This document shows, piece by piece, positions 1-28,236 of a DNA stretch of 64,000 nucleotides. The stretch's first letter is position 1; each line of letters begins with the position of its first letter. Under the pieces are notes generated by a model. That model ran no database searches and was not told the origin of the DNA. It saw only the letters and a program-made list of their open reading frames with translations. The DNA lies in the NCBI GenBank assembly GCA_043228905.1, contig JBHGNT010000004.1:7812001-7876000 (forward strand), in the 5' to 3' direction. This DNA is from Azolla caroliniana (taxonomy: Eukaryota > Plantae > Polypodiophyta). Position numbers and translations under genes: made by a program.

Positions 1-393
1 TCAAAGTGGGTGTGGAACAACGAACAGGTGTTTAAGCGTAATGCGTAAGGGAAGAACCCCTGTAACCTATCAGCGTATAAGGGAAGACGGCTACAACCGA
101 ATCCCTATCAAGGGTTACACTTACGTACTACAACGCTTAAGTATTCAAGACACCCACACTGAATTAGCCGTAGCTATACACAAAAAATCAGAGAAGATAG
201 AATTCTATTATCAGGCGTTTCTTTACATTCCCCAAAATTACACGCACCTCCATCAGAGGTTTTCTGCCCTTTATATATGCAGGGTCTAATTAGCCGTTCA
301 CGCTTCCTGCGTGAACCGTTACATGCGTTATGCTCTTATATAATTTCTTATTCCTACGCTTTTGTTCGTCGATTACTATTCCGGCGGACAACA
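1..393 (-). mobile_element. Partial LTR of the same family as the 16893-18291 element, truncated by the window edge, inserted into the pol of the Tcn1-like element
   Basis: The minus strand begins TGTTGTCCGCCGGAATAGTAA at 393, matching the LTR start TGTTGTCCGCTGGAATAGTAA at 16893. Blocks shared throughout (ctaattagaccctgcatatataaagggcagaaaacc; gttcgttgttccacacccac). Confidence 0.85.
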
Positions 394-1468: not shown

Positions 1469-1472
1469 CATT

Positions 1473-1490
1473 TGGTGAACCCGACGTGAA
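1473..1490 (+). promoter_or_regulatory. Primer-binding site complementary to the 3' end of tRNA-Trp
   Basis: TGGTGAACCCGACGTGAA is the reverse complement of the plant tRNA-Trp 3' end (TTCACGTCGGGTTCACCA), 4 nt after the LTR. Confidence 0.85.
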
Positions 1491-1507
1491 AGCGGCGACA
1501 AGGAGAA

Positions 1508-6600: not shown

Positions 6601-7068
6601 GAAATGAGTAGGGAAGATTTACTTGCGGTTCGAATACGACAACTTCAATCAAGGACAGAAGACATAGAAAAAGCAGCTACTAGATTGAAAGAGGCAAGAA
6701 TCAAGAATAAGGACAGATTTGACAAGATGAAAAGAATACGACCAAGAAAAGTGCAAGAAGGAGATTGGGTATTAGTATATGATAATAGTCTAGATAATCA
6801 ATATAGTACTATTCGGAAGTTTTCAAAAAGATGGTTTGGACCTTATGAAGTTAGGAAAATAACAGATAAAGCCACATATTTCCTCAATGAATTAGATGGG
6901 ACAAAAATTCGTATCCCAATTGCAGGAAAAAGGATTAAAATATTTAAAAGGAGGGAGTCATTAGAGCCCGAATTTTATGAAGAAGTAGAAGAACTAAAAG
7001 AATCGGAAGAAGTGTTGGATGAACTCTGCACAACCAATGTGCAAGTTCAGAGGGGGTGGGTGTCGTGA
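3601..7068 (+). CDS. Pol (RT-RNaseH-integrase), in the -1 frame relative to gag
   Basis: RT (LPQGATNS, FLDD), RNaseH (DSS...ELW...TDC), integrase HHCC and DDE, GPY motif, no chromodomain. Frame is open from 3601. Confidence 0.95.
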   Translation, partial: RVFPGFLDRAFTGRGCDSPSIKENPINNNVNKDIPCTISSNGATFILKVNNNKIQNAFEYFKCFGLIDDDEEIQDMFEELSFEDTITHLEAMEEDNEIQVPVHSIKMYEVIEEVARKDHEAHVLTKYKTVEKKVRPIAAPLPRDSEKAIKEAATEPMIRDPRKVGHVFTPETIQGMKIGGGDFLLPAEEKQFREMLKRHGKAFAFQPEEIGCVDPEIVEPMVIFTIPHIPWNFKPIPMPRARIPQLLELLKEKIRMGILEPSNAPYSSRWFTVLKKDGRLRFIQDMQPVNKVTIRNSGVGPIVDEFAEMFAGRAIYSMGDLYSGYDQFQLAIKSRDITSIKTPIGLVRMCTLPQGATNSMAHMMNGMNKVLRDFIPHITMPFLDDVPIKGCKEEEKNEELDESGCRQFVADHIKDCEKVLSRMEEVHLTLSGAKSIFGAKEILIVGHMCGPYGRKPSPTKVNAIQNMQEECTSISEVRRFLGVCVFYCKWIPHYAHLSEPLYRLLRKGETFEWSEEHSKAMKKLKYYLAQAPPLKQPDYTRPIYLTVDSSPIGIGWVISQQDREERYPVRFGAKVLSGRQRKYAQVKRELWGIVTAVKTDRDYLIGAEVIIETDCLPILGIIANCDIPDQAMLRWCIYIRSINPEVRHISGNRNAVADMLSRARYEEEEIPDSDDEDKEQIVLTTSITREGGMQFLEEEYEEEFKEIGKYLQTPDKYKGRSFAQFRKKAHKFFLHEGYLWRHPKTKTGNPQRVIGSEGQRKEIIRELHDKEWAGHRGVWATFSKIKERFWWPRYYEQIKKYVETCPTCQYYSNVKFCDELHPTYSPGVHYKWMIDLVTMPLGIGQKRYLVLAREDLTNQVEGRSLRTKGTLGVCQFILEDIVCRYGCIGKIVADRGELNSAEAQDFFDKIGIRLSLTMAYNLEANGKVERGHGPIVKALAKACRGRVSDWPKTLAYALWADRTTHSTVTGYMPAELITGQKPIMPIEEKITTWAVLPWESEMSREDLLAVRIRQLQSRTEDIEKAATRLKEARIKNKDRFDKMKRIRPRKVQEGDWVLVYDNSLDNQYSTIRKFSKRWFGPYEVRKITDKATYFLNELDGTKIRIPIAGKRIKIFKRRESLEPEFYEEVEELKESEEVLDELCTTNVQVQRGWVS

Positions 7069-7978
7069 AGAATGTGCTTCACGATATAAAAATGAGCTTA
7101 AATGTTGTATTTAATAATATTTGAGAGACTTGAACCCACATCCTTATAAACAATATACAATGTACATACCACTAGGCTAGGCTATTTATTTGTAAAAGTG
7201 TGTAATAAATGTGCTTCATGATATAAGAATGAAGCTATATATTGTATTAAGTAATATTGAGGGACTTGAACCCTCAACCTTGTATACCAAGCACCAAGTA
7301 TACACCACTAAGCTAGGTTAGTTATTTTAGAATGCATTTTCATCATTATACTTATCCCATATCTATTTTCATACATAGCCATCATTCATCACATGCAATG
7401 CATGTGCGCCAAATGGCGATCATGCATTACATGTAACTCATGCATTGCATGCATGCCATGCTCCCATACATTACCATATGCATGGTAACACTTTTATAAA
7501 GAGGGGAAAGGGAAAACAAAGGGAATCAAGAGAGAGTGAGAAAATAATACAATCAAGTAAAGAAGTCTAGCTCATTGGGTGGAGAACCTCTCGTTTCGAA
7601 GTTGATGTCGTGGGTTCAAATCAAGGGTCGGTAGAGAATGTGTTCAGTTTGCGATCAAGGATTGTAAAGTTGGTAAAATATTATATTTTTAATATACATC
7701 ATGTTTATATCATATACTCTTGTTCCTTGATTCATACTTTGTCTCAATCTTCCTTCTTAAATCATATTTTGTGTCTATCTTGCTTCTTGAATCATATATT
7801 GTCTCTATCTTCTATCTATTCTCGTCTCTCTCTCTCACACATTACTCGTAACTCTTCTTCTTGCTACTCTTAACCTTTCTAACATCACCATACAAGCCTT
7901 ATTAAAAGTTAAGTTTCTTCAACTCCCCTTAACCTTAGTCCCCGCGACTTCGCCGCACGAACCACAACTACCCCGACA
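7061..7978 (+). repeat. 3' LTR
   Basis: Copy of 551-1468, preceded by a PPT and followed by TSD ACGT. Confidence 0.97.
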
Positions 7979-10900
7979 ACGTATGGCATCGGTAATCCGG
8001 GAATCCATTGGGGTGTGAAAAATCCGCGTTGTGTGCAATCGTGTTGGTCCCAAGATTACTTGCTTTTGATTATCAAACGTTGGATCATCAGGACGATGTG
8101 CAAGATATGAACGCCGTGATAGCGCATCTGCTTTTCCTTGCTGCTTTCCCGGTCGATATGTGATTTTGAAGTCGAAACGCGTGAGGAATTGAGCCCACCG
8201 AGCTTGCCGTCGATTTAGCACCCGCGCGTTCTGGAAATAAGCAAGGTTTTTGTGATCACTAAAGACGATGACTTGATGTGGAGAGCCCTCTAAGAAATGC
8301 TTCCATTGCACAAAGGAATCCACGATGGCTAATAACTCCTTGTCATGTATTTCGCAATTGATTTCCGCGGCATCGAATTTGCGCGAATGGAAAGCCACAG
8401 GATGTAACTCTTCTTTATCTCCTTGTTGAGAAAGGATGCTACCGAGGGCGAAATCCGATGCGTCGGCCTCCATGATGAATGATTTCTTTGTATCCACATG
8501 TGCTAGAATAGGAGCTGACGTAAAGGCTTTCTTAAGATGCTGAAAAGCCATGTCCGCTTCATTGGACCAAAGAAATGCTTGTCCCTTCTTCATAAGTTGT
8601 GTGAGAGGTAAAATAATCTTCGAGTAATCCTGTATAAACTTGTGGTAGAAGTTCGCAAAACCTAGAAAACATTGTACATCTCATACCAACTGTGCAATTT
8701 GCCACTCTAGCACAATTTGGACTTTAGTTAGATCCGTGCTCTTCTTGGGACTTCGAATAAATCAAGAGATCATCCAGATAGATGATCAAATAGATATCCA
8801 AGAGGTCTCTGAATATATCATTTGCCATGTGTTGGAAGACTGCGGGTGCATTGGTTAGACCGAACGACATAACAATATATTCGAAATGCCCATACCGCGT
8901 GCGAAAGGCGGTCTTCCATTCATCTCCCGGCCGGATCCGCACGAGGTTATACGCTCCTCGTAGATCGATTTTTGTAAAGAACTTGGCACCATTAACTCGC
9001 TCTAAAAGACTTGATATAAGAGGAAGTGCATACCTATTCCGGATGGTGACTTTATTTAAGCCGCGGTAATCAACGACAAGACGAAGTGAGCCATCTTTCT
9101 TCTTGACAAAGAAGATGGGTGCACTGGCCGGAGATTTCAAATGACGAAGAAACCCACTTTCCAAGTTCTCCTCTATGTAGGCTTGAAGGACTTCTAACTC
9201 AGTGGGGGACAAGTTGTAAATTGGTCCCCATGGTGGCTCTGCTCCCGGTTGTAGATCGATGGGACAATCATAGGGACGATGATGAGGAAGAGTACCGGTT
9301 TTTACCTTGTCAAATACATCGGCATAAGGATGATATTTTGCCGGAAGTTGTACTAAGGATTCCTCCTTAATAGGGCTGGAAGGATGTACTAATATTGCAA
9401 GTAGGAACATTGCCTCCTTGTGTCCTTCTTCGCGTAATTGACGTAGTGAAATGGTCAAAACTTGATGAGTAGATTCTTGGGGTTGTCGATGTCGGACTTC
9501 TCTTGTTCTCCAATCTATGTCTGGATTATGTAATTCAAACCAAGGTAATCCCAGGACAATGGGATGCTCTGGACTACTAATTATATTAAATGCTACTACA
9601 CACACAAAACTACCTAGGACAACTCGAATGGGTTCTGACTCTTCTACAATATTCCCGGAAGCAATGGGACGACCATCAATGACTACTACAGATGCGGGGC
9701 AAGGAAGTTTTCTTAAGGATATCTGAGAAGCTTGGGCAAAATTTCGATCCATGAAACAGGAATTAGCTTCGGAATCTAGAAGTGCTAGGACATGTACTAG
9801 GGGAGTACTTTTAGTACTAACCATGACTTGGGGTAGGAACACATTGCTAACTTGCTTGGAGGGAATGGAACCACTAATGGGCTGTACAGATCTAGGGTTG
9901 TCCAACCAAACGACTCCTATTTTGGCTAGACTCAATCGTTTAACTCTTCATCTAATTGACTAAGGATTTCAAATTTGTTTGAGATACTTGGGCTATTAGT
10001 ACTATTAATACTATCAAACAATCTATTAGTACTATTAATACTATTAGACACTCCTAAGGGAAGAATTGACTCGGGTTTAGTACAGGCGACGATTTGATTT
10101 ACCTGTCTTCTTGGACTATGGGGACAATTGATTGCGATATGCCCTGGTCCACCGCAATAAAGACATAATCGATTTGCACGTCGTCGTTGCTTTTGTTCGT
10201 CCGATAACGAGCCACGTCGACGCATGGTATCGATATCCATCAGTATCGAAGTATTTGCTTGAGGTATGTCTCGTGCAAACGGTTTAGCTGCGATTGAGGC
10301 GTAAGTGGGCTCCGGCCTAGAGCGTGGTATCTATAATTGACATTCCGAACGCCGTTCGAAAAGGCGGTTGTCACATCTGACCGCTCGACTGATTGCCTCC
10401 GTAAGAGACTTTGGTTCTTCGGGGAATGTTAGAAGTAGATCTTTGACATCGTTTCGCTGGCCGTAGCGAAATTGCTCCATTAGTGCTTGATCATCCCAAG
10501 GGATATCTGAAGCGAGTAGACGGAAATCCGCTGCGTACATAGACGCTAGACGATCGCCTTGACACAATCGTTGGATCTTGTTGATCGTCGTCCTGATGAT
10601 GTCGGTGTCTCCAAAGCCGGCTTTAAACTCACTAATAAAATCTTCAAAGTTATTAAGCAAGGGCGATTGTTTTTCTAGAATTGGAGCGAACCATGCTAAG
10701 GCCGAGCCGCTAAGCAACGTGCCTATTAGGCTGACTCGGGATGCATTAGTGGGGTATCGGGAAGGATGCATTTGGATGACTAATCATACCGATCCTTGTT
10801 GTTGCAATGCTGCTTCGAGTTGTTGTACCCATAACGCTAACTCCCCATGATGTTGCTGCGTTTGTTGTTTTTCTAGGGCGATTTGTTGCAGATCCCCTAT

Positions 10901-11511
10901 CAACCGTTGGTTTTCTTGTTCCAAGGCAACAAATTTTTCTTTTAGGCATTGTAGCTCGGAGAAAACGGATTGATATTCTTGGGCGCTAACAGTAGCCATA
11001 GTATAGGTAAAAGGGTAGGAGGATGAGGGAGAACGACAAGTAGGGTTGAGGAAAAATTGGTTTGAACTGTCAGGAATAGTACTAAAGCAAAGAGAATTAG
11101 TACTAAAGAATGGAAGTACTATTAGTACTAAGAGGACGAGACTGCGTAAGATTCCCGAGAGAGAAAGAGAGAAGGGAAGAGAGAGATAGCGAGGATGAGA
11201 GAGAGAGAGAGACGATGATGATAACAACTAATGTATTATGTGAAGGATAAGTACAAAGTGGCTAAGAGGCTTAAGACTGGCATTGAACCAATTTGGTTCA
11301 ACATAATCCCTAGTGCCTTCTTTTATAGTATTCTCAGGAGTAATCCTGAAGCTTCTAGAATGTTCCAGAGAAATCTAGAATATACATTAACTTCCTATAA
11401 TAAAAGTTAAATGAAAATAATATTCTACGTATTACAATAGATGGTATAATGGTCAAGAGCTCGACCCATATAACATAAGGTCATGGGTTTGAGTCTTGCC
11501 ATATCATGACA
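7979..11511 (-). mobile_element. Degenerate Tcn1-like Ty3/gypsy element (gag, PR, RT, RNaseH) with a probable short 5' LTR at about 11239-11511
   Basis: Gag fragments (MATVSAQEYQ; LLSGSALAWF; CLYCGGPGHIAINC), PR ALLDSEAN, RT FTKIDLRGAYNL / YLDDLLIYS, RH DASDFALG. Frameshifts and stops present; LTR limits tentative (minus TGTCATG...TTCACA). Confidence 0.85.
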
Positions 11512-12288
11512 GATTGATCCCCCCCCATTACACAAGCCTTACAAGGGTTTTTATAGGTTTATCTATCCTTCTAACATGCACAAAACCATGTGGGCTTGAA
11601 CCTGTGGTTTTCGGGCACACGGTTTTCCTTGTGGCATGCACAAAACCATAGGCTAAAACCATGGTTTTGTGTACACGATTTTGTTTGTTTGTTTCCTATG
11701 GAATACTAAATATGAAAAGGAAATATACAAAATCTAAAGCACTTAGTAGTAGCTTTAGTGGTAAGATAATTGCTTCCTATCTTACAAATGCAAGGTTCAA
11801 ATCTTGCTTGCACCCTTCTATATGCACTTGAATGTCATCAGACCCTAGGCTAATTTTCATATTTATAATCATGTGTATAATGTGTGTGGAGCCACACTAT
11901 TTCACAATTTCTCCCATTGGACACAGAACATCACAACAACGTCACACAACCGCTCCCGTTCTGGCTGTTGCTGCTGCGGCGGTGATACCGGCAATTCAAT
12001 GATCGGTTCTTGATTCACCGGTACTGCCGTGTCCTAGACCGTTGGTTCCACGATGTCCTACCGCAGCCCTTGCTCCGTTCCCGATTCTTGTTGAGCCAGT
12101 TATGCTGCCTTCCTCGGCTACGGATCCTCAGGGGAGGGTTCCCGTAAATTGTCCTATGTTAGCCTTGATGTTCCCCCTTTGTGGCCCTTTTCTCTTCTCT
12201 GGTAACGCCTTTGAAGCGTCTCGGTCGGCTCGTCTTCCTATTGTTCTTCTTCCAGGGTCTCGTTGTTGATTAACGCCGCCAAGGGGTC

Positions 12289-12987
12289 CTACCCCTGTGT
12301 TTTCTCTGGTTGTTGGTCTGCTTGTTGTCCCGACAGGCGCAACTTGATTTTCAACGGTCTCCCCGAGGGGTCCACTGATGCCTCCTTCTCTGCCAACCGC
12401 TTCCGATTAGGCCATTCCTTCGCCTGGGTAGCCAGGAGTTGCTGCCATTTTGAAGCTGTTTTGGGGGTCGCTTTTGTCGATCTTCCCCTCTTCCTTTGTT
12501 TCATGGGCTCCACCGATGGTGCTAACAGAGTGAGCCATTGCGCCACTGTTGTCCACATCTTTTTGCCATCTTTTATCGAGACGATGGCAACACTCAGGTC
12601 GTCGGCAATCATTACCGGCCAATCCACCTGTACTCCCTCGTAGGTGGCTATGATTAGACCGGTTCTATTCCTGGGCATCGCCGGTGGTCGGGGGTACACA
12701 TGGCCATACTCGTGGAGTACCTGAGCGATTTCCCGAAACAAGAGATCTTCACCGCCTTGTGTGCGGTACGCCTTGCCGCCCAGGGAGTATTCCCCAAAAT
12801 ACCTCGTCAGCAGCTCCGGCGAGGGGTTGTCGATCGAGTAGATTCCCCCTTCCGGTAGGCCGGTCATGGCTCGGATGGCTTCCTCGGTGATGACCTTCGT
12901 GTTGATGTTTTTAACGACATTTTCTGCATCTCCATGTGGCGGTGCTTCGACTATCCGCAAGAATCCCTTCAGACCGTGTTGCTTCAT
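12289..12987 (-). CDS. Extra (env-position) ORF of the Athila-like element; degenerate, function unknown
   Basis: 232-aa sense ORF downstream of integrase (ITEEAIRAMTGLP...VDWPVMI), in the position where Athila-like elements carry an additional ORF. Confidence 0.55.
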   Translation of the reverse strand: MKQHGLKGFLRIVEAPPHGDAENVVKNINTKVITEEAIRAMTGLPEGGIYSIDNPSPELLTRYFGEYSLGGKAYRTQGGEDLLFREIAQVLHEYGHVYPRPPAMPRNRTGLIIATYEGVQVDWPVMIADDLSVAIVSIKDGKKMWTTVAQWLTLLAPSVEPMKQRKRGRSTKATPKTASKWQQLLATQAKEWPNRKRLAEKEASVDPSGRPLKIKLRLSGQQADQQPEKTQG

Positions 12988-15900
12988 CTATTTCTTAGCT
13001 GCTTTTGAGAGTACCATGCATTCCATGTCGTCTTAGGAGTCGGTAGGTTGTGGTAAGATGGGTGCGCCTGCGTGCTCTGCGTGCTCTCGCCTGATCACTC
13101 GTAATCGCCTGTGGACGCTGAGATCTCTGTGTTCGCGAAGTGAAAGGGACTCTACGTGGCGTGGGTTTTCTTTCTCCATTCGTGGTGCCTTTTCTTGATT
13201 CCCACGCATGCATGTCCTGTACTAATATAGCAGTCGGTTGACACGTGGTGCGCCTGTCTTTAAAAGCTTTAATTAGCCACCCACCACACCTTTTCAAAGT
13301 GCCAGTTCGCTCCTCGCCTCTGCATGATGACTTCCTTTTTCTTTTTCTTTTTTATTTATTTTTAATTTGAGTTGACTTAACCGGAAGCACCAGGTCCGTA
13401 TCCTGGTTTTTCCCCATATTCACTTTTGCCGGCCACCTGTCTGTTGTTATCCGGTAATTTTTTCTTGCTTCCTCCTATTGGATCAGCCTCCGTCTGCTCG
13501 AATGGGTTCTGTGGCATCAGTCCACAATACGGTTTGAGTTGAAACCCATTGACCCATTTGCCCATTATCTCACCGGCGAGCGTTCCGAGTTGGTATGAAC
13601 CGTTGAATTCCCACGTTATCCAATATGGTTCGGTCCACCAGAACCGTAGCTTTCCCGACATTGGACCCATCCGGGTCTGGAACACGAGTACCGGCTTGCC
13701 GATCCCGAACATCTTCTCATTGCCCTTTAGGTGCCGATCAACAAACACCTTCCTTCGTCACTGCTCTAGTTCCAACTACATGAGACTTGCTATCCAATGT
13801 TCCTCGAGTTCGCATAATGCGACTAACCGGATCTTTTCTGATTCCTTTTCACTTAGTCGTTCTCTAACCTATATCCGCAAACTCGGAACCTGAAATTCAA
13901 TCGACATTACTGCTTCAAGCCCAAATGTTAACCGGAATGGTGTTGACCGGATACTCGTTTTGTGTGCCGTCTGGTATGCCCATAGGGCACTATGTAGCTT
14001 GGTGTCCCGATCGGTTCGGTTTTCATTGACGATCTTTCGCAGGATGTTTTGGAGCGTTTTGTTCGTGGATTCGGCCAGGCCATTGGCTTGTGGATAGTAA
14101 GGGGTACTACGCTTGTGTACCACGGCATAAAATGTTGTTAAGCTCTCCACTACTTGACCGAGAAAATGTCTGCCTTGGTCACTAATTAATTCGATCGGGC
14201 ATCCATACTGGCACCAGATGCACTCATATAAGAACTTTATCGTCAAAGCCGCAGTGTTGTCCTGCAACGCCTTGGCTTCTACCCACTTGGTGCAATAATC
14301 GGTGGCGACTATGACATATCTGTTGCCAGTTCTCATTGCCGGAGGTTTAAAAGGCCCAACGAAATCCAACCCCCATTTCTGAAATGGTTCTAAGGGTAGC
14401 ACCGGCTAGTGAGGCATCCTTGCCTGTTCTGTTCGTTGGCCCATCCGTTGACATAAATCACAGACTTTCGCGTACCGAACCGAGTCCTTTAGTGTCGTCC
14501 GCCACCATAGCCCGCTGTGCCATATCTTTCTTGCCATAGCGTCTCCGGCATAGTGCCCTTCGGCCACGCCACAATGCGCTTCTCGTAATATTGTGTCCTT
14601 TTTGTCGCTTCGCACTACTCGCCGCCATATGCCATCCGCACCTTTGTGGTACAGAGTGTCCTATAGTAGACAAAAATGTCGACTTTGCACCGCTAACCGC
14701 TTCCGCTCATCCCGGTTCATCTCCTCTGGTGGAATTCCCGTGCTTAGGAATTGATGCATGTTGGTTAGCCACTTGTCTTCGTCGACTACCATGCTATCGG
14801 TTACCGTTTCGGCTGTTACTTTAAACAACTCAGCATCCGGAAACTCATTCGGGACTCCATTGCCGGTCTCATCGGAGTCTAACCAGCTCAGATAATCGGC
14901 AACCGCATGCTGTATCCCCGGCCGGTGATATATTTCGAACTCGAACTCTTGTAGCAACAAAGTCCATCGGGCCCGCTTGCCGATGAGTGATGCCTTTGAG
15001 ACCAAATATAACAGCGCTGAGTGGTGGACATGGAAAGAAAATTTCCTTCCCAATAAATAGTGCATGAACTTGGTAACACTGTAAATCATCCCTATGGCTT
15101 CTCTTTCTGTTGTTGAATAATTCCGTTCTGCCTGGGATAGTTTCCGGCTAGCATAATAGACCGGTCGGTACCATTTTGGTTCAGTTAGTTGCATTAGTGC
15201 GCTGTCGATTGCTATGTCGGACGCATCCACGAACACATGGAATTCTTTCGACCAGTTCGGTGGTTGCACCACCGGTGCTTGTGATAGCAGTACTTTTAGT
15301 GCCCGGTAAGCCTCATTCTCCGTATTCGTCCATTGGAATGGTGTCCGGTGAACCGCGGCATGCAATGGTGTAGCAAGATCGGCTAAATACCAGAGCATCC
15401 GGCTATGCCACCAGATTTTCCCTAGAAATCGACTCAAGGCTTTGGCCGTCGATGATGCCGGTGCTTCTAAGATTGCTTTCACCTTATCGGGGTCTACCGC
15501 GATCCCGTCCTTGCAGACAAGATAGCCCAACAATGCACCGCTTGTTACTCCGAATACACACTTTGCTGGATTCAAGCTTAACTGATAACTTCTGCATTTC
15601 TCAAGACATAGCCGGAGGTGTTGGAGATGTTCTCCTTCTCGGCTATACACGGCGAAGTCATCCAGGAATACCTGCATGAATGCCGGAATGAACTCGTCAA
15701 ATATTTCCATGATTATTCGTTGAAAGGTTGCCGGCGCGGTCTTGAGCCCGAACATCATTACCACTGCGACAAAGACTCCCCATTCGGTGATGAATGTTGT
15801 CTTGTCTTGGTCGTCGGGGTGCATCCTTATCTGATTGTAGCCGCTGAAACCATCTAGGAAGCTATACACTTCATGACCAGCTACCGCATCCAACACTCCA

Positions 15901-16892
15901 TCCGTAAACGACAGTGAAAAGGCATCGGTCACTGTCGCCGCATTGAGTTTTCGGTAATCAACGCACACCCGGATTTTACCGTTCTTTTTCGGCACGATGA
16001 CTATGGGACTTAACCATGTGGCTTTTTTCACTGGTCGGGTAAAACCGACCCGTAGCAACTTGTCAATTTCCTCTTTGACTTTTGCCTCATAGTTAGGGTT
16101 CATCCGGTAATGCCGTTGTGCTACCGGTTTGGCATCTTTACTGAGGTGTATTTGGTGTTGGTACAACTGAGGATCCAGTCCTCACATGTCTTCATAGGAC
16201 CAGGCGAATACGTCTCGGAATTCCTTTAATAAAGTGATCATCGCCATTCTGTTGTCTAGTGACATTTCCTTAGCAATATGAACCGGTCTAGCGTTGTCCC
16301 CGGTCCCTAAGTTCACTTCCTCTAACTTGGATGCTTTCACGCGTTGGGATATAGCCATCTCCCTCTCCAGAGATTCCTGTGCTTGCCGTAAATCTCTGAT
16401 AGCTTCCCAATCTGGTTCCTCGATGGCATCATCTGATTGCATTCTATATGGTGGCACTACTTCCGCCACATCGATTTCAAATAGGGGTACAATTTTTGGG
16501 TTTTCTTCTAAGTACCGGTCAACCTCTTCGTCCGCAAGCCCCTTGAGCATGTTTACCCCTTCCGCATATAGCAGTGTCAGCTCCTTGCCGGCACTTGCTC
16601 GGGGGTGGGTAGGTACCCTTTAGTCTTTCCTTGCCGGAAGGTAATCATGTTTTTCCGCCAATTTTGTTTGATATGCGCCGTTTTTAGCCATGGGCGGCCC
16701 AGCAATGGCGGGTAAGCCCCTTGCGCATTGAGCTAGAGAACCACCGCCGAAATGCGGAATGCATGACCTCTGATAGTTACAACTAGATCCCGTATCAACC
16801 CGGTAGGTCTTACTGAACTTGTATCCGCCATCCGGAGCCAAAACTGGCAAGGCTCCCATTCCTGGATTCCCAGGGTATTACAAGTCCGTAGA

Positions 16893-18291
16893 TGTTGTCC
16901 GCTGGAATAGTAACCGACGGCCAAAAGCGTAGGAATAAGAAACTATATAAAGCGTAACGTATGTAACGGTTCACACGGGTACGCGTGAACGGCTAATTAG
17001 ACCCTGCATATATAAAGGGCAGAAAACCTCGTAAGGAGGTGTGTGTAAATTCTGGGAATTGTAAAAAGAATGCCTGATAATAGAATACTATCTTCTCTGA
17101 GTTTCTGTGTATAGCTACGGCTAATTCAGTGTCTGTGTCTCGGATATGTAATCGTAAGAGTACGTAAGCGCAACCTGTGAGAAGGAGTCGGTTGTAGCCG
17201 TCTCCCCTTACACACAGCGGAGTCACAGAGATTCTCTCCTTACGTAGTACGATTAAGCTTTGTTCGTTGTTCCACACCCACCTTGGGGTCTAGGTCGAAG
17301 GACTGACCACGGACCGTGTTTCCTAAGAGGCAACACTTTTGGCACGCCCGGTGATCTGTGTTTCCTCATAGACGAGCAACAACGAATGGATGTTTAGCCG
17401 CAGATGACTCAGAGTTCCCCACAAGACCAGATAGCGAAACGATTAACCAACAAAAGGTCCAGCCCACGCCATCTTCAGAAAACGCGGAAAATAGTGCGGA
17501 CCAGGCGGAATCCCCGCCCCACGCCCAGGGACACACAAAAACGGCCAACACCGCGGAGGACGTAACAATAGCGGCGGAGCACCAGCCGACAGCAAGCACG
17601 CTACCGGCGGAGCCTAGTCCACGAACTCAAGAAGAGCCCACCGTACCCGGACCACCCGCACACGGCGAAGGCGACTCCGAGAGAAACCAGGCCGACCAAG
17701 CAGAGGAGCCGCACCACGATGCTCCTATGGGCCCTACATCAACTCCGGCTGAGGACACCACAACAGAGCCAAACATCCGGGCCATTTTGGAAGAAGATTA
17801 ACGGGATGGGTCCGACATGCAAATGCACTGTCCCACAAGCGTGCCAGGTGTTGTCCGCGGAAATAGTAACCGACGGCCAAAAGCGTAGGAATAAGAAACT
17901 ATATAAAGCGTAACGTATGTAACGGTTCACGCGGGTACGCGTGAACGGCTAATTAGACCCTGCATATATAAAGGGCAGAAAACCTCGTAAGGAGGTGTGT
18001 GTAAATTCTGGGAATTGTAAAAAGAACGCCTGATAATAGAATACTATCTTCTATGAGTTTTTATGTATAGCTACGGCTAATTCAGTGTCTGTGTCTCGGA
18101 TACATAATCGTAGGAGTACGTAAGCACAACTTGTGAGAAGGAGTCGGTTGAAGCAGTCTCCCCTTACACACAGCGGAGTCACAGAGATTCTCACCTTACG
18201 TAGTACGATTAAGCTCTGTTCGTTGTTCCACACCCACCTTGGGGTCTAGGTCGAAGGACTGACCACGGCCCGTGTTTCCTAAGAGGCAACA
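16893..18291 (+). mobile_element. Small non-autonomous (TRIM-like or internally deleted) LTR element inserted into the host protease region
   Basis: 443-bp LTRs at 16893-17335 and 17849-18291; TSD GTAGA/ATAGA; PBS TGGCACGCCCGGTG at 17340; 513-bp internal region with an acidic/Pro-rich ORF remnant; no PPT. Confidence 0.92.
17340..17353 (+). promoter_or_regulatory. PBS complementary to a tRNA-Arg(UCU)-type 3' end
   Basis: TGGCACGCCCGGTG, 4 nt after the 5' LTR end. Confidence 0.8.
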
Positions 18292-21200
18292 ATAGACTGA
18301 TCACGTTCATGCTTGATCCTCCATCCACCATCGTCCCTAGTAGTTCGCGTCCTTTGACGATGGCGGTGATTGCCGGACTGTTCGTGTCTACCACTGCTGG
18401 CCCTTCTTCTAGATTTGAGAAGAACGCAGGAGCCGGCAACGGAATTGATATGGTCACTCCTGATTTCAGCCCTTCCGTAAACCAGGGCACTAGCTGTAAT
18501 AACCGACCCAATGGCAACGTAATCTGACATTCTTGTAACGCTTGGCATGTTGGGTTTTCCAGCTGAATCGTGTCGGTGGCCTCTTCTGGTTTCTCCTTTT
18601 GTTGTTCAAGCTCAGCCACATTGTGCTCATTTGCCTTCTTCATCCACTCGGTGGCTTGCTTTCAGATTGCCTCTTGTGTTTCCCACTCCATTGTTTTGCC
18701 TTTGCCCTGGTGGTGACTTGTTGTATGTCGGCGATTTCTGTGACCACCATATTTACAGCTGGTCTTATCTCGTAGCTTTTAACCGGACATTGATTACTGT
18801 AATGTCCTTGCCGACAATAGTAGCAATACGCTTTGTGGTTATTGCTGGATTCGACGTTCGCTCCGGTACCCAGTTGAGGTCCTATTGGTGGTCGGTTGGG
18901 TGGTTGGGCTTGGTCCGGTTGGGTGCTTGGCATGCCCTTGTCCAGCTGCCACTAGCGGTCCTCCTTTCTAGTGTTCCATTTTTTGTTGTAGCGTTTCTTG
19001 TTCCGGTAACCCTGTCGGGGCCAATTTTCATAGTTGCCTTGATCCTCCCTTTGTTGGTTGTAGCCGGGGGAGTGATCCCGGTTGTATCGCTCGTATTGTT
19101 CACCGTTGTAATCTCGGTAGCTATCCCACCGGTCTCGGTCGTGAGCGTCCTTTCTGTCGTTGTTCCGAATATCTTGCGTCGGCCGGTAACGCTCATCTCG
19201 CCGCCAACGTTCTTCTTCCTCCTCCCGGTTGCTCCGAGGTTCGATTTGCCTTACCGGTGCCACTTGCCGGTTCAGCAAGTTATATTCGCATCGGTCCATT
19301 GTGTGCGTTCTGGAGTCACGACATTACATGCACTGTGTCCGCGTGGTACATTCTATTGCCGAGTGCCCGACATTGAGACACGTCGTACATTGTATAGCTT
19401 GCCGAAAACGTAGGTCATCTTCTGTTGGTAATGTACGTTGGACTGCCCCCATTGTTAGCCACGAGCTTGTTTTTTCCATCTCCCTATCCCGTTCTATGAC
19501 TTGGTCAATCGTACTAGTGTGGAAATCGATCACGGCGCACACTGTACGCAGGGGTTCCTTGAGTGCGGCTAAGAAGATTGCTTTCGCCTCTGCCTCCGGT
19601 GGTGCCCGATTGAGCTGACTGTGCATTCGCTGGAACCGGATTACAAATTGTTGAATGGTTTCCGTAGGTTCCTGTTGTATGGTGTAGAATAGGCCGACCA
19701 TCTCCCGTTGATCCACCTCCTTGTTGAAGAACTATAAAAATCTGGTTTTTAAGTCTTCAAATGTCGTGATGTTGCCGGGAGTGTGCGTCAAGCGCCATTG
19801 CGCGACTGGTCCTTCCAAGGTCATGCCGAACTTTGCAATCTTCGATCATTCTGCTTTGGCGGCGGTCAAGCGTTGCGACACATGGTTTGCTTCCCATGTT
19901 TGCAGAAATGCATAGACATGAGCTTCTACGTCCGGATCATCCCGGTACTTGGGATATTGGAACGACATGTCGTCGTCGGGTGTCAGAGGTCTCCCCTCTT
20001 CTTTCGGTAATAGAGGTCTTTCCTCCTCTTCTTTCGGTGTCTCACGTGGCGGTGTCGGGAGTTGATCCGCCACCTGCTGATCTGGGGCTTCCAGTACCGT
20101 TAACTTCGGTTCTGGTGTCGGCAAGGTATCCAACTACTGGTCCTCCGGTCCGTCTGGGGTGTCGTGGTTGCTACAATAATTCGAATGGGCGATGCATTCA
20201 TCATCTGAATCCGATTCGAAGACCAAGAATGGTTCCAAATCGCCTCCCCCTATCGCTAGTGCCTGCAGAATAGATTCCGAGTCCCGGAGGCTACTCACGC
20301 TACTTCCTTCGTCCGGTTGGGAATTCTGTTGTTCGCGGAGTGACTCTGCGGCCACTCATCGGATTACTTTGGAAAATGAGTGATCCACACGGATCTCTTC
20401 TACCACTTGTTGGAAAGCCTCTCACTTCCGCAATCATTCAGCAAGTCTTCTTGCTCACTCCGTAACCGGGTCATTTGTCGGTCTAGTCATCCATGCCCGC
20501 CGTTGTTCGCTACGTTTGTGCAGGAATCGTGGTCGCCAAAAACTGTGTAATCGCTAGGGCCAGACAATGGCCTAACAAAGGGTGTCCCTTTGAGACACTT
20601 CACCAAAGGGGTGTTGCGGTGAGATAGAGTTAGACCGACTATTAATGGAACCTTAATGGGTTACTTGCGGCAATATCAATAGTCACAATACACGCGTAGG
20701 ATAAATTACACTTAGCACAGAACGGTAATTAACAATGATTAAGATACAGAACAACAACACTCTATTAATTATCAGTTAATGATTACAATCTAACCGGCCC
20801 TTTTTATAGGTCTCCGGTTTTAGGTACAAACCGGTGCCAACCGGCAACCGGCTACGAACCGGTCAGGATCCGGATCGGCATACCGATTCTGTGTCTGTTC
20901 ATTCGCTTCTCAAATCATAATAATAAATATATAATTAGCTCCTAGTTATTAATTATCCCCTCGTTTCCCATTCTGGACTTTCCTTGCCGACTGGCTAACA
21001 AAAGGCACGTTATTACAGGTGACACGAGTCTCGAGTAAGCGTTGGTCATTCCCAAGAACTTTAACCGCAAATCTGACCACTAAGCGAGCAAATACTTATT
21101 ACATTCGACTTTGATGTAATCGCCAAATGTATTCAAAAGCCCTAACTAAGGCACCGTGGTGGCAATTACTTCATAGGTTGATTCCTCTTAAGTTTCAACA

Positions 21201-21337
21201 CGTGCACGAAATCTTAAGAATCCCTAAAACACTCCTCGAACGAAGCTCGGGCCATAACGTCTTGAATAATGACCCACGCAAGGAGGGAAAGAAGATTGTA
21301 GCGGTGGTTTTGACGTACAACTAATTCAACCACGTAG

Positions 21338-21409
21338 TATCAAAGCGAGGTTTCAATCCTCGAACCAGTGGGTTATGGGCCCACCACGCTTCCGCGGCGC
21401 CACTCTAAT
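21338..21409 (-). tRNA. Initiator tRNA-Met(CAT)-derived copy, probably a pseudogene
   Basis: Minus strand ATTAGAGTGGCGCCGCGGAAGCGTGGTGGGCCCATAACCCACTGGTTCGAGGATTGAAACCTCGCTTTGATA: 72 nt, intact anticodon arm, iMet-type T-loop with substitutions, no adjacent oligo-T terminator. Confidence 0.85.
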
Positions 21410-22809
21410 GCGGACGGCTTAAAAGTCAAAGAGAGGTAAATAATGCAAAGAGAACAACATGAGAGGTCTTGCTTATTTCTCCTTGTTAAAAAACTCAAGA
21501 AGGCATGGAAAAGTTATAAACAAGATCGATGTTAGCAAATGGAGTGTGAACAAGCCGAGCATGAGCACGACGGGTGGCGTCGTTAAGTAGTATAGATGTT
21601 CGTACGTACTCGACGCATGTCAATGAGTCTGCCTCATTCGTTCTCGCGTCGGAGTTGGTGTGGGAAAACACCCTCTTGTGGGCATCACAAGAGAGAGGGC
21701 GACCTAATTGTTCTCGAGTGTGCCAACATACCATATTAGCACACTAGGAAACCATCTTGCTCACCGTAGCACGTCGAGGTTTTGTGTCATCTATCGGACT
21801 CGGGTCACCACTTGTATGGTTGCACCAAATTGGGAAAATGATCGACACTAGTTTGACGCCAATTTTCGTTCCCTTGCCCTCAAACGTTATATGGTACATG
21901 CCACAAACCTCAAGAAGCGACCCCTCCTCGAAACTAGGTGAGACGGCCTCCAACCCGATGACATGCGGAGGTGGTAGGTTTGTCGACTAGAAAACAACTC
22001 CAGCTTTACAGCATTTCGAGAACGATGTCATTCATTACAGCAAGAACTTCTCGTTTCTTCTCCGTTGACGTTACATTGGCAAGGAAAGGAGAACAAGAGA
22101 ACTGATTTCAACCGTCTGTTTTGATGAGCGGTTGTTGGTGCACATGATTTGGCTCATGCAAAATCTCAAATGCTGCAGCTAGTGTCTTGAAATGATGTTA
22201 AAAGATGGTTACATATCCCACCGATCTATGGCTTTGTTCGGTAAAACTTGGAAGGCGAGATGATGTTGTGAGGATGTTTGGTCGGGAAGACAAGTCCGCA
22301 ACCTTGGATGGATTGGTAGATGAAGGGTAAATTGCACTAATATTGTCAATGGTAAGTTCTAACGTGTTGCAATGAACATCATGTTGTAATGACTCCCGTT
22401 AAAAGCAAAAGAAAGACCTAAGAGTAAGCATTAAGTCTGATGTGCAGTTGTGGGAAATGTTGTGCAGCGTGGTTGGAGTTCTCAATTGCGGTTTTCGTCC
22501 AAGGTGTTCATACGTACAACGATAATGTGTGGTCTTCCTCGGCGTTATTACAGGTGACACGAGTCTCGAGTATGCGTCAGTCATTCCCAAGAACTTTAAC
22601 TGAGGATTTGACCACTAAGCGAGCAAATACTTATTACATTCGACTTTGATGTAATCGCCAAATGTATTCAATACGTGCGCAAAATCTTAGCAATCCCGAA
22701 AAAACTCTCGAACGAAGCTCGGGCGGTAACGTCTTGAATAAGGACCCACACAAGGAGGGAAACAAGATCGTAGCGATGGTTTTGATGTACAACTCATTCA
22801 ACCGCGTAG

Positions 22810-22883
22810 TATTAGAGCGAGGTTTCGATCCTTGGACTTGTGGGTTATGGGGGCCCACCACGCTTCTGCTGCACCACTTTGAT
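22810..22883 (-). pseudogene. Second tRNA-iMet-derived copy, with a 2-nt insertion in the anticodon loop
   Basis: Minus strand ATCAAAGTGGTGCAGCAGAAGCGTGGTGGGCCCCCATAACCCACAAGTCCAAGGATCGAAACCTCGCTCTAATA. Confidence 0.85.
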
Positions 22884-23599
22884 GCGGACGGCTTAAAAGT
22901 CAAAGAGAGGTAAATAATTCAAAGAGAACAACACAAGAGTTCTTGCTTATTTCTCCTTGTTAAAAAACGAGCACGACGGGTGTCCTCGTTAAACAAGATC
23001 GATGTTAGCAAATGGAGTGTGAACAAGTTGAGCACGAGCACGACGGGTGTCCTCGTTAAGTAGTATGGATGTTCCTACGTACTCGACGCATGTCAATGAG
23101 TCTGCTTCGTTCGTTCTTGCGTCGAAGTTGGAGCGGGAAAACATCCTCTTGTGGGCAACACGAGAGAGAGGACGACCTGATTGTTCTTGAGTGTGCCGAC
23201 ATACCATATTAGCTCACTAGGAAACCATCTTGCTCACCTTAGCACGTCGAGGTTTTGTGTCATCCGTTGGACTCGGGTCACCGCTTGTATGGTTGCACCA
23301 AATTGGGAAAATGATCGATGGTAGTTTCACGCGAATTTTCGTTCCCTTTCTAGAACCCTGAAACGCTATATGGTACGTGCTGCAAACCTCGAGAAGCGAC
23401 CCCTCCTCGAAACTAGGTGAGACGACTTGTAGCCCGATGACTTGCGGAGGTGGAAGGTTTGTAGACTAGAAAACAACTCGAGCTTTGCAACATTTCGAGA
23501 ATGATGTCATTTGTTACAGCGAGAACTTCTCGTTTCTTCTTAGTTGACGTTACATTAGCAAGGAAAGGAGTCCTCTAGCACAGTCATCAAAGCCATTGT

Positions 23600-24617: not shown

Positions 24618-25334
24618 TAGAATTGTGTGTTTTGCTTCCTGTCTTCTATTTGTTCGACACCAATACACACTACATTATAACCGGTTGGGGCCGTCTTCGA
24701 TCTCTTCATAAATGATGATGAGGATACTACCGGCCACAACCGGTTCATACATGTGTGTATGCGGATGCAAAGATCGAAATGACAAAAAAAAAATAGAAGA
24801 CAGGAAATAAAAGTACAGAAACACTGTTGTATGTATGGCTGGACTAGCCGCAACACAGGTGTCTATCCGACACTTCTCCAAAGGGGTGGTAGGGATAGGA
24901 TGTTAATACACGCGTATGATAATTACACTTAAGCACAGACGAAGACAAGATTAATAAGCATAAGCAAAACTGTATTAATTCTTCGCCACTTCATTACAAA
25001 CATCGGATCCTTTTATAGGCATCCGGCCAGATTACAATCGGTGCTCGGTAGGCAACCGTTAACCGAAACCGAATCGGTTCGGATCCGGATCGGTTACAAC
25101 TACCAGATCCGTCCCTCCTAATAATTCTATTCCTATTTCTATATTTATCCGATCCGACCTTGCTTCCCCATTTGCCTTCTCTGACCGGCCAACACATGGC
25201 ACGCCCGTGGGAAAGTGCATTGCACTTCGAACCCACAGCCGGCTTCAGTCTTCCTCCAAATTATCCCGCAAACTCCGCTCAGAGGTTTCAAGTGTTGTCT
25301 TGCCTGTGCCGTCTCCGACTTCTGATTGGATTGG

Positions 25335-26345
25335 CTACCTTTTCGCATCTTGCTGCTCCGACTCTGCTTGTACCGGTGGTACCGGTGTTTCTTCTGTATC
25401 CTGTCCGGGTCTGTCCTGCTCCACCTCCGTTCCGTTCCCGGTATCGCTCTCTCCGGTTTCCACTGGTTGTGTCCTTTCCTCCCCGGATTCGGTACTTCTC
25501 TGTCTCCACTCTGCATCATCCCCGGCATCAACCTGTTCTTGCTCCGAAAGTTCTTCCTCGGGTAATTCTTGTCGGGGTGCATTGTTGGTTGGGTCCTCTT
25601 CAGCCGGTCGCTCGCCCTCACTGATGGAGATCGGCGTTGTGTGTCCCTCGGCTTCCTGTCGCAGTCGGTCCTTCTCGTACCCTTCCAATTCTAGTTGGGT
25701 TTCGAGCTGCCCGTCATCCAACCTCTCTACTAACCCTCGGATTTCCTTGAGATGCTCTTCTGCTAGAGCATAGAAATCCTCCGACAATTCTTCCCGGATG
25801 TTGACGATACTTTCTTCGTCCATTTTATAGAACCCATCTCCGGTTTTCTTCCGATTTTCTGCATCAGCTCGGAGTGTCTGCAGTTCAGCTGCCTGTTGTG
25901 CCCATTCCCTCCAGAGTTTCTCCGTGCTTTCATTTATGCTGGCCTGAGCTCGGGTACTCCAACTTGACATGATGAACTTAATTCGGTCAACCCCTGCTTT
26001 AGCCTGTTCCGAAGCTGCTTGTTTTTCCTTCCTTATCCGTTTGATGATGTCGGCCATTAACTGAGCTTGAGCTTCAGAGTCGGCTTTTTGCTTGTCACAG
26101 GTACTCCGCCATTTGTTGATTTCGAAAGTCGACTTCACTTTTTCCTCGTTCCTGCTCTCTGTCAGCTCCCCTACTTTCTGTCGAAGTACTTCCATCTCCT
26201 TTCTTTGTTCCGACGTCAAGGTCTTCTCCGTCGATACTTCCTCCCTTGCTTTGGACAATTCCAAGCGGTTTTCCTTGAGCTGCTCTTTCAGCTTCTCTAT
26301 CTGTCGGTCGTACGTTGCTGCCTGATTCTTGATGTCCGACGATAG
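25335..26345 (-). CDS. Coiled-coil/acidic ORF remnant (3' part of an Athila-like extra ORF), copy 1
   Basis: Uninterrupted frame, K/E/Q-rich heptad-like N half and acidic disordered C half; native start missing (fused to the LTR). Confidence 0.6.
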   Translation of the reverse strand, partial: LSSDIKNQAATYDRQIEKLKEQLKENRLELSKAREEVSTEKTLTSEQRKEMEVLRQKVGELTESRNEEKVKSTFEINKWRSTCDKQKADSEAQAQLMADIIKRIRKEKQAASEQAKAGVDRIKFIMSSWSTRAQASINESTEKLWREWAQQAAELQTLRADAENRKKTGDGFYKMDEESIVNIREELSEDFYALAEEHLKEIRGLVERLDDGQLETQLELEGYEKDRLRQEAEGHTTPISISEGERPAEEDPTNNAPRQELPEEELSEQEQVDAGDDAEWRQRSTESGEERTQPVETGESDTGNGTEVEQDRPGQDTEETPVPPVQAESEQQDAKR

Positions 26346-26855
26346 TGTTGTATGTATGGCTGGACTAGCCGCAACACAGGTGTCTATCCGACACTTCTCC
26401 AAAGGGGTGGTAGGGATAGGATGTTAATACACGCGTATGATAATTACACTTAAGCACAGACGAAGACAAGATTAATAAGCATAAGCAAAACTGTATTAAT
26501 TCTTCGCCACTTCATTACAAACATCGGATCCTTTTATAGGCATCCAGCCAGATTACAATCGGTGCTCGGTAGGCAACCGTTAACCGAAACCGAATCGGTT
26601 CGGATCCGGATCGGTTACAACTACCGGATCCGTCCCTCCTAATAATTCTATTCCTATTTCTATATTTATCCGATCCGACCTTGCTTCCCCATTTGCCTTC
26701 TCTGACCGGCCAACACATGGCACGCCCGTGGGAAAGTGCATTGCACTTCGAACCCACAGCCGGCTTCAGTCTTCCTCCAAATTATCCCGCAAACTCCGCT
26801 CAGAGGTTTCAAGTGTTGTCTTGCCTGTTCCGTCTCCGACTTCCGATTGGATTGG

Positions 26856-27866
26856 CTACCTTTTCGCATCTTGCTGCTCCGACTCTGCTTGTACCGGTGG
26901 TACCGGTGTTTCTTCTGTATCCTGTCCGGGTCTGTCCTGCTCCACCTCCGTTCCGTTCCCGGTATCGCTCTCTCCGGTTTCCACTGGTTGTGTCCTTTCC
27001 TCCCCGGATTCGGTACTTCTCTGTCTCCACTCTGCATCATCCCCGGCATCAACCTGTTCTTGCTCCGAAAGTTCTTCCTCGGGTAATTCTTGTCGGGGTG
27101 CATTGTTGGTTGGGTCCTCTTCAGCCGGTCGCTCGCCCTCACTGATGGAGATCGGCGTTGTGTGTCCCTCGGCTTCCTGTCGCAGTCGGTCCTTCTCGTA
27201 CCCTTCCAATTCTAGTTGGGTTTCGAGCTGCCCGTCATCCAACCTCTCTACTAACCCTCGGATTTCCTTGAGATGCTCTTCTGCTAGAGCATAGAAATCC
27301 TCCGACAATTCTTCCCGGATGTTGACGATACTTTCTTCGTCCATTTTATAGAACCCATCTCCGGTTTTCTTCCGATTTTCTGCATCAGCTCGGAGTGTCT
27401 GCAGTTCAGCTGCCTGTTGTGCCCATTCCCTCCAGAGTTTCTCCGTGCTTTCATTTATGCTGGCCTGAGCTCGGGTACTCCAACTTGACATGATGAACTT
27501 AATTCGGTCAACCCCTGCTTTAGCCTGTTCCGAAGCTGCTTGTTTTTCCTTCCTTATCCGTTTGATGATGTCGGCCATTAACTGAGCTTGAGCTTCAGAG
27601 TCGGCTTTTTGCTTGTCACAGGTACTCCGCCATTTGTTGATTTCGAAAGTCGACTTCACTTTTTCCTCGTTCCTGCTCTCTGTCAGCTCCCCTACTTTCT
27701 GTCGAAGTACTTCCATCTCCTTTCTTTGTTCCGACGTCAAGGTCTTCTCCGTCGATACTTCCTCCCTTGCTTTGGACAATTCCAAGCGGTTTTCCTTGAG
27801 CTGCTCTTTCAGCTTCTCTATCTGTCGGTCGTACGTTGCTGCCTGATTCTTGATGTCCGACGATAG
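26856..27866 (-). CDS. Coiled-coil/acidic ORF remnant, copy 2
   Basis: Same translation as copy 1. Confidence 0.6.
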   Translation of the reverse strand, partial: LSSDIKNQAATYDRQIEKLKEQLKENRLELSKAREEVSTEKTLTSEQRKEMEVLRQKVGELTESRNEEKVKSTFEINKWRSTCDKQKADSEAQAQLMADIIKRIRKEKQAASEQAKAGVDRIKFIMSSWSTRAQASINESTEKLWREWAQQAAELQTLRADAENRKKTGDGFYKMDEESIVNIREELSEDFYALAEEHLKEIRGLVERLDDGQLETQLELEGYEKDRLRQEAEGHTTPISISEGERPAEEDPTNNAPRQELPEEELSEQEQVDAGDDAEWRQRSTESGEERTQPVETGESDTGNGTEVEQDRPGQDTEETPVPPVQAESEQQDAKR

Positions 27867-28236
27867 TGTTGTATGTATGGCTGGACTAGCCGCAACACAG
27901 GTGTCTATCCGACACTTCTCCAAAGGGGTGGTAGGGATAGGATGTTAATACACGCGTATGATAATTACACTTAAGCACAGACGAAGACAAGATTAATAAG
28001 CATAAGCAAAACTGTATTAATTCTTCGCCACTTCATTACAAACATCGGATCCTTTTATAGGCATCCAGCCAGATTACAATCGGTGCTCGGTAGGCAACCG
28101 TTAACCGAAACCGAATCGGTTCGGATCCGGATCGGTTACAACTACCGGATCCGTCCCTCCTAATAATTCTATTCCTATTTCTATATTTATCCGATCCGAC
28201 CTTGCTTCCCCATTTGCCTTCTCTGACCGGCCAACA

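Follow-up and report, generated by a model that had tools for sequence, protein, structure and literature searches.

We analyzed a window of 64,000 nucleotides (nt) from the fern Azolla caroliniana (contig JBHGNT010000004.1, positions 7,812,001 to 7,876,000, forward strand) and found a tRNA-derived motif at the 3' end of a retrotransposon that we call element A (window positions 16893-18291). Judged from its sequence, the motif is a sense copy of nt 49-76 of tRNA-Arg that is split by a predicted hairpin. It stands just upstream of the 3' long terminal repeat (LTR), in the place of the polypurine tract (PPT). Priming from a PPT is the textbook route to the plus strand for LTR retrotransposons and retroviruses alike. 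The motif is kept at this fixed place across at least four LTR groups. On balance, we favor the reading that the motif, in the form of its minus-strand DNA copy, would be a second primer binding site (PBS) at which a host tRNA-Arg primes the plus strand.

Element A is a non-autonomous Ty3/gypsy LTR element of 1.4 kb that resembles miniature terminal-repeat retrotransposons (TRIMs). Its two LTRs of 443 nt differ at 17 positions (96.2% identity) and are flanked by a 5-bp target-site duplication (TSD) with one mismatch (GTAGA/ATAGA). The interior of 513 nt contains a PBS, TGGCACGCCCGGTG, which begins 4 nt past the 5' LTR, and a frame of 148 amino acids (aa) with a stop codon 4 nt upstream of the motif. 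An earlier note on this DNA had quoted a tRNA-like end for the element, and we confirmed the sequence at the quoted place. The whole motif spans positions 17806-17846 and is followed by GG and then by the 3' LTR.

The assignment to tRNA-Arg comes from a search with a form of the motif that lacked the insert. This pattern matched one viral and 22 prokaryotic records. ARAGORN called a tRNA-Arg in 21 of the 23 (2 UCU, 19 UCG); one of the others was a tRNA-Asp and one was left uncalled. An encoded CCA, absent from the pattern, follows the match in 17 records. The commonest motif agrees with nt 49-76 of the stand-in tRNA-Arg(UCU) gene in L041 at 27 of 28 positions, with one base absent at 65/66, and the insert of 13-14 nt sits exactly between A58 and N59. 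The plant cytosolic tRNA-Arg(UCU) presumably ends in the same way. In organism C (we label four organisms A to D), GTGGGTTC was kept, its unpaired loop bases included, and the hairpin stem was kept as well; the hairpin loop and the next bases changed in these matches, which had loose ends. A tRNA gene or full tRNA mimic, which would have a cloverleaf with a 7-nt T loop, was ruled out. ARAGORN found no tRNA in the window or in L001-L031, and Rfam gave no tRNA match at E 10 and only a chance-level match to nuoG. Because the T loop is split, the fold is not a tRNA mimic, and the description "tRNA-like" holds for the sequence of this end and not for its fold.

This end had also been described as lacking a PPT, and the purine content agrees. 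Within the 15 nt before the LTR, the longest purine run was at most 4 nt in all 34 copies of the motif, versus 8, 11 and 12 nt by the same measure in three other LTR elements of the window. No PPT precedes the 3' LTR of element A. Its interior has three purine runs of 8-9 nt, all within the acidic open reading frame (ORF), and the nearest is 51 nt from the LTR.

The position of the motif was examined in the window and in metagenome contigs. A pattern for the motif matched three times in the window and never in 100 shuffled windows, which rules out chance occurrence. The two other matches belong to a second family, which we call the 24825 family after its position. The metagenome contigs were scanned with the T-stem and hairpin part alone, leaving the tail, the CCA and the LTR outside the pattern. 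We obtained 32 matches in 31 loci, whose 31 records come from one accession series and may represent one study and few species. All 32 matches run on into the tail and then into an LTR start, TGTT. The spacer between motif and LTR is 2 nt in 31 of the 32, and the CCA is intact in 29 and decayed in 3. The invariance of the T stem and hairpin in these matches is no evidence, because the search pattern fixed the former and most of the latter. The 10-nt tail, which the pattern left free, had a mean pairwise identity of 0.80 among 12 picked copies of different families, versus 0.34 for the upstream DNA and 0.34 for LTR bases 5-31 of the same copies.

When the motif-bearing LTRs were grouped at 70% identity over 40 nt, they formed two large groups, with L015 and element A standing apart from these; five more singletons narrowly miss the same grouping. 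The element A LTR gave no BLASTN match to the 24825-family LTR and had no link to any other motif-bearing LTR at this threshold. Both statements of the earlier note, that the two LTRs cannot be aligned and that the motif is conserved at a fixed place across diverged families, are therefore upheld, the latter by the parts that lay outside the pattern. Family A, to which element A belongs, is present in sequencing runs of organisms A and B. Organisms C and D have almost no words in common with element A, and 26 and 265 of their contigs, respectively, fall on the 60-nt motif stretch. The spacer on the U3 side is 2 nt, and the spacer on the U5 side varies from 2 to about 6 nt. Where a 5' LTR is visible (element A, L029 and a copy at window 1-393), no motif precedes it. 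The copy at window 1-393, on the minus strand, is a third, older family A LTR (84%), either a 5' or a solo LTR, that is cut by the window edge. Neither the motif nor relatives of the reverse transcriptase (RT) were found in viral contigs. A run that we guessed to be RNA yielded a single contig spanning motif and LTR, and we did not use it as evidence.

Some copies lie in duplicated DNA. At 1550-1639 of L010, the 3' half of the motif and the start of the LTR are duplicated head to tail over 37 nt. L004, L012 and L021 show motif-LTR-PBS junctions and repeated units; tandem arrays are possibly common in this lineage, though a collapsed assembly can give the same picture. The 24825 family is present in the window as an LTR-ORF-LTR-ORF-LTR tandem (24825-28236, >99% identity) with a deleted PBS. 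The 4 bases past its LTR equal the spacer of this family in L030, and the sequence then jumps into the 3' ORF.

The orientation of the motif had been argued from the presence of both ends in one element, which was held to exclude a mis-oriented PBS. This argument is insufficient because the motif, read on the minus strand, is itself the longer PBS (27 nt versus 14). Orientation is settled by coding sequence. Element A is inserted in a decayed element of the same lineage at 11930-21000, whose own 3' LTR and 3' end lie outside the window. Over 201 nt, the LTRs of this host element and of the 24825 family share 70% identity and run in the same direction. The host element has the same PBS as L030, a contig of the 24825 family, and homologs of its 3' ORF, at 44-48% identity, precede the motif in L013 and L030. 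In both of these, the long 3' ORF ends 8 nt before the motif, with the same ILEED-stop as the short frame of element A, and the 24825-family LTR and 3' ORF are co-oriented with gag-pol of the related window element. The motif therefore belongs to the 3' end when the element is read in the direction of pol; a mis-oriented element is ruled out. By its ILEED-stop end, the frame of element A is likely a deletion remnant of the long 3' ORF, and element A is likely a deletion derivative from the same lineage as the gag-pol element that surrounds it.

The autonomous partner of this lineage appears to have the order RT-RNase H (RH)-integrase (INT), as seen in the 11930-21000 element and its relatives P0003 and P0005; the link to the motif runs through likeness of LTR, PBS and 3' ORF. 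The window RT is 46-58% identical to named relatives from Adiantum, Riccia, Marchantia and Calypogeia (about 50-58% for most) and 40-44% identical to five angiosperm RTs. A quick RT tree had 78 rows: three RTs of the window, the one above among them, and 75 of 120 listed proteins. The five angiosperm RTs, which we take to be Athila-like from their motifs rather than from a reference set, formed their own branch at 99. The window RT and the fern and liverwort RTs, 70 rows in all, grouped at only 80, which is weak basal support. We found no chromodomain in three near full-length relatives (P0003, P0005 and P0050) and no RVT_3 or second RNase H match in these three or in the window pieces. A chromovirus was rejected on the missing chromodomain and on the distance of the RT from a window RT that we presume to be Tcn1-like, and Tat (TatI-III, Ogre, Retand) was ruled out on the missing aRH domain. 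By these sequence comparisons, we class the lineage as non-chromovirus, non-Tat Ty3/gypsy from a non-seed plant, likely a fern. Its sense 3' ORF had no Pfam match, Athila ORF-1 included, and no entry in the ESM Atlas. Two such 3' ORFs (window 12292-12987 and 25338-26423; L013 and L030) are conserved across families; one has about 230 aa or more and one at least 400 aa, coiled-coil-like and acidic.

Features of element A, of the element that hosts it and of the 24825-family motif copies (window positions).
Feature	Position	Strand	Remark
Left TSD, GTAGA	16888..16892	+	right copy differs by 1 base
5' LTR of element A, 443 nt, TG...CA	16893..17335	+	
Minus-strand PBS TGGCACGCCCGGTG	17340..17353	+	complementary to the tRNA-Arg(UCU) stand-in L041 over 14 contiguous bases
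Open frame, 148 aa, no Pfam match	17355..17801	+	ends ILEED-stop
tRNA-Arg nt 49-58 in sense (5' part of T stem and T loop)	17806..17815	+	changes G49A, T55C
Hairpin insert, 14 nt, between tRNA positions 58/59	17816..17829	+	
Sense copy of tRNA-Arg nt 59-76 minus one base (65/66), ends CCA	17830..17846	+	changes G67A, G68A
GG spacer, 2 nt	17847..17848	+	2-nt spacer in 33/34 motif copies
3' LTR of element A, 443 nt	17849..18291	+	
Right TSD, ATAGA	18292..18296	+	
Decayed gag-protease-RT-RH-INT element, same lineage, host of element A	11930..21000	-	left limit approximate
5' LTR of the 11930-21000 element	about 20545-21000	-	
PBS TGGCGACCAC of the 11930-21000 element	20538-20529	-	
Sense 3' ORF of the 11930-21000 element	12987-12292	-	
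Same motif, 24825 family, 2 nt before its 3' LTR	25197..25236	-	
Second motif copy, 24825-family tandem	26718..26757	-	

The insert is predicted from its sequence to be a hairpin, and we asked how far folding and covariation bear on it. The RNA of three motif copies folded on itself with z-scores of +0.91, +0.26 and -2.33 relative to shuffles, which do not set the motif apart. The first of these is the element A copy, with a fold of -7.7 kcal/mol and A.C as its first stem pair. The earlier note had reported the TGGG/CCCA stem as kept; the self-fold of the element A copy is no better than that of shuffles. The minus-strand DNA hairpin is weak, at -5 to -7 kcal/mol. Our covariation alignment held 16 motif rows, chosen from 34, and 2 tRNA rows. 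Two of the six pairs in the insert's inner helix had changed at both bases (5 cells); in the T stem none of 5 pairs had, most of that stem having been fixed by the pattern. In the majority of family A, the innermost hairpin pair is C-G in place of A-T (17821 A>C in 69-78%, 17824 T>G in 96-99%); these majority letters are depth-weighted contig shares, with 78 rows not shown. Most family A copies in runs X1, X4 and X5 carry the insert GTGCC-A(A/T)-GGCAC. In one family A form, which reads GTGCCA and then TGGCAC, the last bases of the tRNA adjoin the sequence complementary to them. The hairpin may go back to a tRNA end copied by fold-back or to a PBS duplication, and on the minus strand it offers another, shorter register for a tRNA.

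We compared the tail of the motif with the PBS. As had been noted, the last 8 nt before the spacer are complementary to the PBS of element A, but this is not separate evidence: the complementarity is automatic if both sites match one tRNA. Tail and PBS are complementary at 10/10 positions in the L003 group and at 8/10 in element A. A PBS is visible beside a motif-family LTR in 11 loci. Nine of these, all from one LTR group, have TGGCACGCCC, and two 24825-family loci, L017 and L030, have TGGCGACCAC. The tail of these two is nonetheless an unchanged GGGCGTGCCA, with 4 contiguous complementary bases and a PBS-tail pairing energy of -7.6 kcal/mol, versus -20.9 kcal/mol. L030 carries motif, LTR and PBS in one contig, which is possibly a collapsed repeat, and the LTR overlap of L017 is 46 nt. 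The 5' PBSs of the L003 group, L017 and L030 match the tRNA-Arg end over about 10 bases, the length of the free tail at the 3' site.

Three ideas for the function of the motif had been put forward: dual tRNA priming, self-priming and a 5'-3' panhandle. Dual tRNA priming fits best, and we infer the following course for it. A tRNA at the 5' PBS would prime the minus strand as usual. After strand transfer, RT would copy U3 and the motif, and RNase H would clear the RNA. The minus-strand DNA would then fold its weak hairpin, leaving the 10 bases TGGCACGCCC free. A tRNA-Arg would dock on these bases through its acceptor end and open its T arm onto the DNA, giving a three-way junction of 17 + 10 base pairs around a hairpin looped out at A58, which usually carries a methyl group that prevents normal pairing. 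RT would extend from the CCA across the 2-nt spacer into U3. Finally, RNase H would remove this second tRNA like the first, and a short overhang outside the TG would be left for integrase. When the minus-strand site was cofolded with tRNA nt 49-76, the hairpin was looped out at 58/59 within a three-way junction in each of the three copies tried. In the element A copy, all four changes become wobble pairs and the pairing is kept. We favor a tRNA over an element-derived primer because nt 49-58 are retained beyond the insert, loop bases included, because the insert is placed at A58, and because the self-fold is weak in two of three copies. The tail also stays that of tRNA-Arg, GGGCGTGCCA, where the 5' PBS is that of another tRNA, which supports the tRNA reading.

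Several points weigh against priming of the plus strand by tRNA-Arg. The cofold energies (-30 to -36 kcal/mol net, versus -6 to -8 for shuffles) hold largely by construction, as RNA parameters were used and the tRNA was found with the motif. The comparisons to tRNA-Arg rest on bacterial and phage stand-in genes in place of the host's own tRNA, and both the T stem and the greater part of the hairpin were preset in the search. The bound tRNA would carry one bulged base (65/66). Among the 19 of 22 motif types with an intact CCA, 9 substitutions were wobble-compatible, and 3 C70T changes and 1 transversion were not; position 59 was left out as variable. Most G>A changes sit in CpG or CHG contexts, and this count does not decide the matter because methylation decay explains most of both classes. 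In no case did we see pol and the motif together in a full-length element on a single piece. Finally, the family A PBS and tail both shift at position 67. The majority PBS (17349 T, 92-96%) and the majority tail (A kept at 17837; 17838 G in 83-84%) each agree with an A at this position, which fits either pairing of the two element ends or the shared use of one isodecoder.

The main alternative, possible but rather doubtful, is that the element's own RNA is the plus-strand primer. RNase H would cut at or just after the CCA, and the upstream piece would prime as a PPT substitute. The motif lies exactly at the PPT place and in the same sense, RNase H already makes a precise cut at a tRNA end in an RNA:DNA hybrid when it removes a tRNA, and the RNase H catalytic residues are present in close relatives. 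A second tRNA would be unnecessary. The RNA can form a long stem with a UUC bulge, and C70T, a mismatch to the tRNA, occurs in 3 intact types. The changes in the inner helix, together with the innermost pair of family A, where the majority has C-G for A-T, are in keeping with this alternative, but they fit DNA folding equally. An RNA:DNA hybrid, however, pairs perfectly whatever its sequence, which leaves the retention of nt 49-58 and the insert at 58/59 unexplained. The fold is no better than shuffles in two of three copies, and the T stem lacks both-side changes, though the pattern fixed most of it.

We consider it improbable that the motif serves some other function (capturing a tRNA for packaging or dimerization, an RNA polymerase III (Pol III) B box, or a target of tRNA fragments) or is a relic of one capture event, with the plus strand starting otherwise. 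In Helenus TRIMs, captured tRNA sequence acts as a promoter, according to the accessible part of the report (PMC10886601), and the 3 decayed CCAs among 32 copies would suit a relic. A relic should decay like its flanks, which the tail has not done. The 2-nt spacer in 33 of 34 copies, set against the variable spacer on the U5 side, is what is expected of a priming site. The B box has the consensus GTTCRANNC. It is intact in 0 of 34 motif copies, and the motif lies outside the LTR, which rules out a Pol III B box role.

We give very little weight to pairing of the tail with the element's own PBS, either as a 5'-3' panhandle that aids strand transfer or as a piece cut out to self-prime the minus strand: the complementarity in the L003 group and element A and the agreement at position 67 speak for it, but L017 and L030 keep the tail despite a different PBS (with the caveats of collapse and overlap given above), the plus strand would be left without a primer, and neither the T arm nor the 2-nt spacer would be needed. 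Both ideas thus fail as general rules for the lineage, and such pairing may occur as a side effect in families whose PBS matches the same tRNA.

We compared the motif to known priming systems; these comparisons hold for the accessible parts of the cited papers. In yeast Ty3, the plus strand is PPT-primed. The bipartite PBS of Ty1 and Ty3, which splits tRNA binding between the acceptor stem and the T arm, serves the minus strand only (PMC5371799). The lineage resembles Ty3 in its TG...CA LTRs, tRNA PBS, 5-bp TSD, the RT-RH-INT order of the related coding element and a plus-strand start signal adjoining U3, and differs from it in lacking a PPT. The 3' PBS half of Ty3 is complementary to the tRNA in RNA, for minus-strand priming (PMC5371799). 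Here the 3' site has the sense of the tRNA itself, so that a tRNA can bind only to the complementary DNA. HIV-1 has an 18-nt site for tRNA nt 59-76 and a separate short primer activation signal (PAS) for the 5' side of the T arm, and A58 is methylated (m1A58), so that RT stops there when copying the primer (PMC11251516). Both systems have a two-part site with A58 at its boundary. In HIV-1 the parts lie in RNA near the 5' end and serve the minus strand, whereas here they would lie in minus-strand DNA, 13-14 nt apart, and serve the plus strand (PMC11251516).

Among plant elements, the Ty3/gypsy survey of Neumann et al. (2019, PMC6317226) describes three primer types, all for the minus strand, and its accessible text lists no PPT replacement. 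The lineage shares the lack of a chromodomain, a tRNA-Arg PBS and a 5-bp TSD with the non-chromoviruses Athila, Tat, Phygy and Selgy, and a sense extra ORF 3' of pol with many OTA elements (PMC6317226). Unlike Tat it has no aRH domain, and unlike Phygy and Selgy, compared by description only, it has the extra 3' ORF (PMC6317226). Tf1/Sushi, Tcn1 and TAR self-prime the minus strand from the 5' end of the transcript and have no tRNA PBS. They show that element-derived RNA can prime, which bears on priming by the element's own RNA, and they differ from the motif lineage, which has a tRNA PBS (PMC6317226). Helenus/TRIMp3 (Kojima 2024, PMC10886601) are, like element A, non-autonomous LTR elements with captured tRNA sequence. 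Their tRNA part lies inside the LTR with Pol III boxes, and PBS and PPT are kept. Here the tRNA part lies outside the LTR, comprises only the 3' third with CCA and has a broken B box, and the PPT is gone, so membership in Helenus/TRIMp3 was ruled out. Our literature searches, which did not cover most subscription journals or Repbase entries, turned up no account of a tRNA-derived site standing in for a PPT. A full-text search with four 10-base motifs gave no paper on the motif among the matches listed. The accessible text supplements of PMC6317226 held no PBS match; its large element table, which could bear on the lineages that share this PBS, is possibly not among them.

The window contains further repeats. 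A young gypsy element at 551-7978, which has an ordinary PPT, carries LTRs of 918 nt that are 99.8% alike. Its gag and pol frames are long and open, and its PBS starts with TTTGGTGAACCCGACG. In the tree its RT stands very far from the others, and its LTR contains short tRNA-like pieces, such as GGTTCAAATC. A second gypsy element at 7922-11227 (minus strand) encodes a gag with a Ty3 capsid and RT-RH; we take this element to be Tcn1-like from its motifs. An unclassified repeat of about 1 kb is present twice at 21008-23570, its copies being 88-94% alike.

We regard it as an evenly balanced possibility that host tRNAs prime both strands throughout a clade of fern-type Ty3/gypsy elements, that a tRNA-Arg starts the plus strand on minus-strand DNA at a site split around m1A58, and that some families use two different tRNAs. 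If true, this would be an LTR retroelement replication cycle without any element-derived primer, and the mechanism, if shown, would be new. The motif is a short, precise site suited to testing tRNA priming on a DNA template. It bears on end recognition by RNase H and integrase, and it may give tRNA fragments a second place of contact. Such elements are likely missed or reversed by LTR finders in which a PPT is obligatory or the best PBS sets the orientation. Whichever primer proves right, a high-copy lineage found in several plant species indicates that the PPT step can be replaced by a tRNA-derived site.
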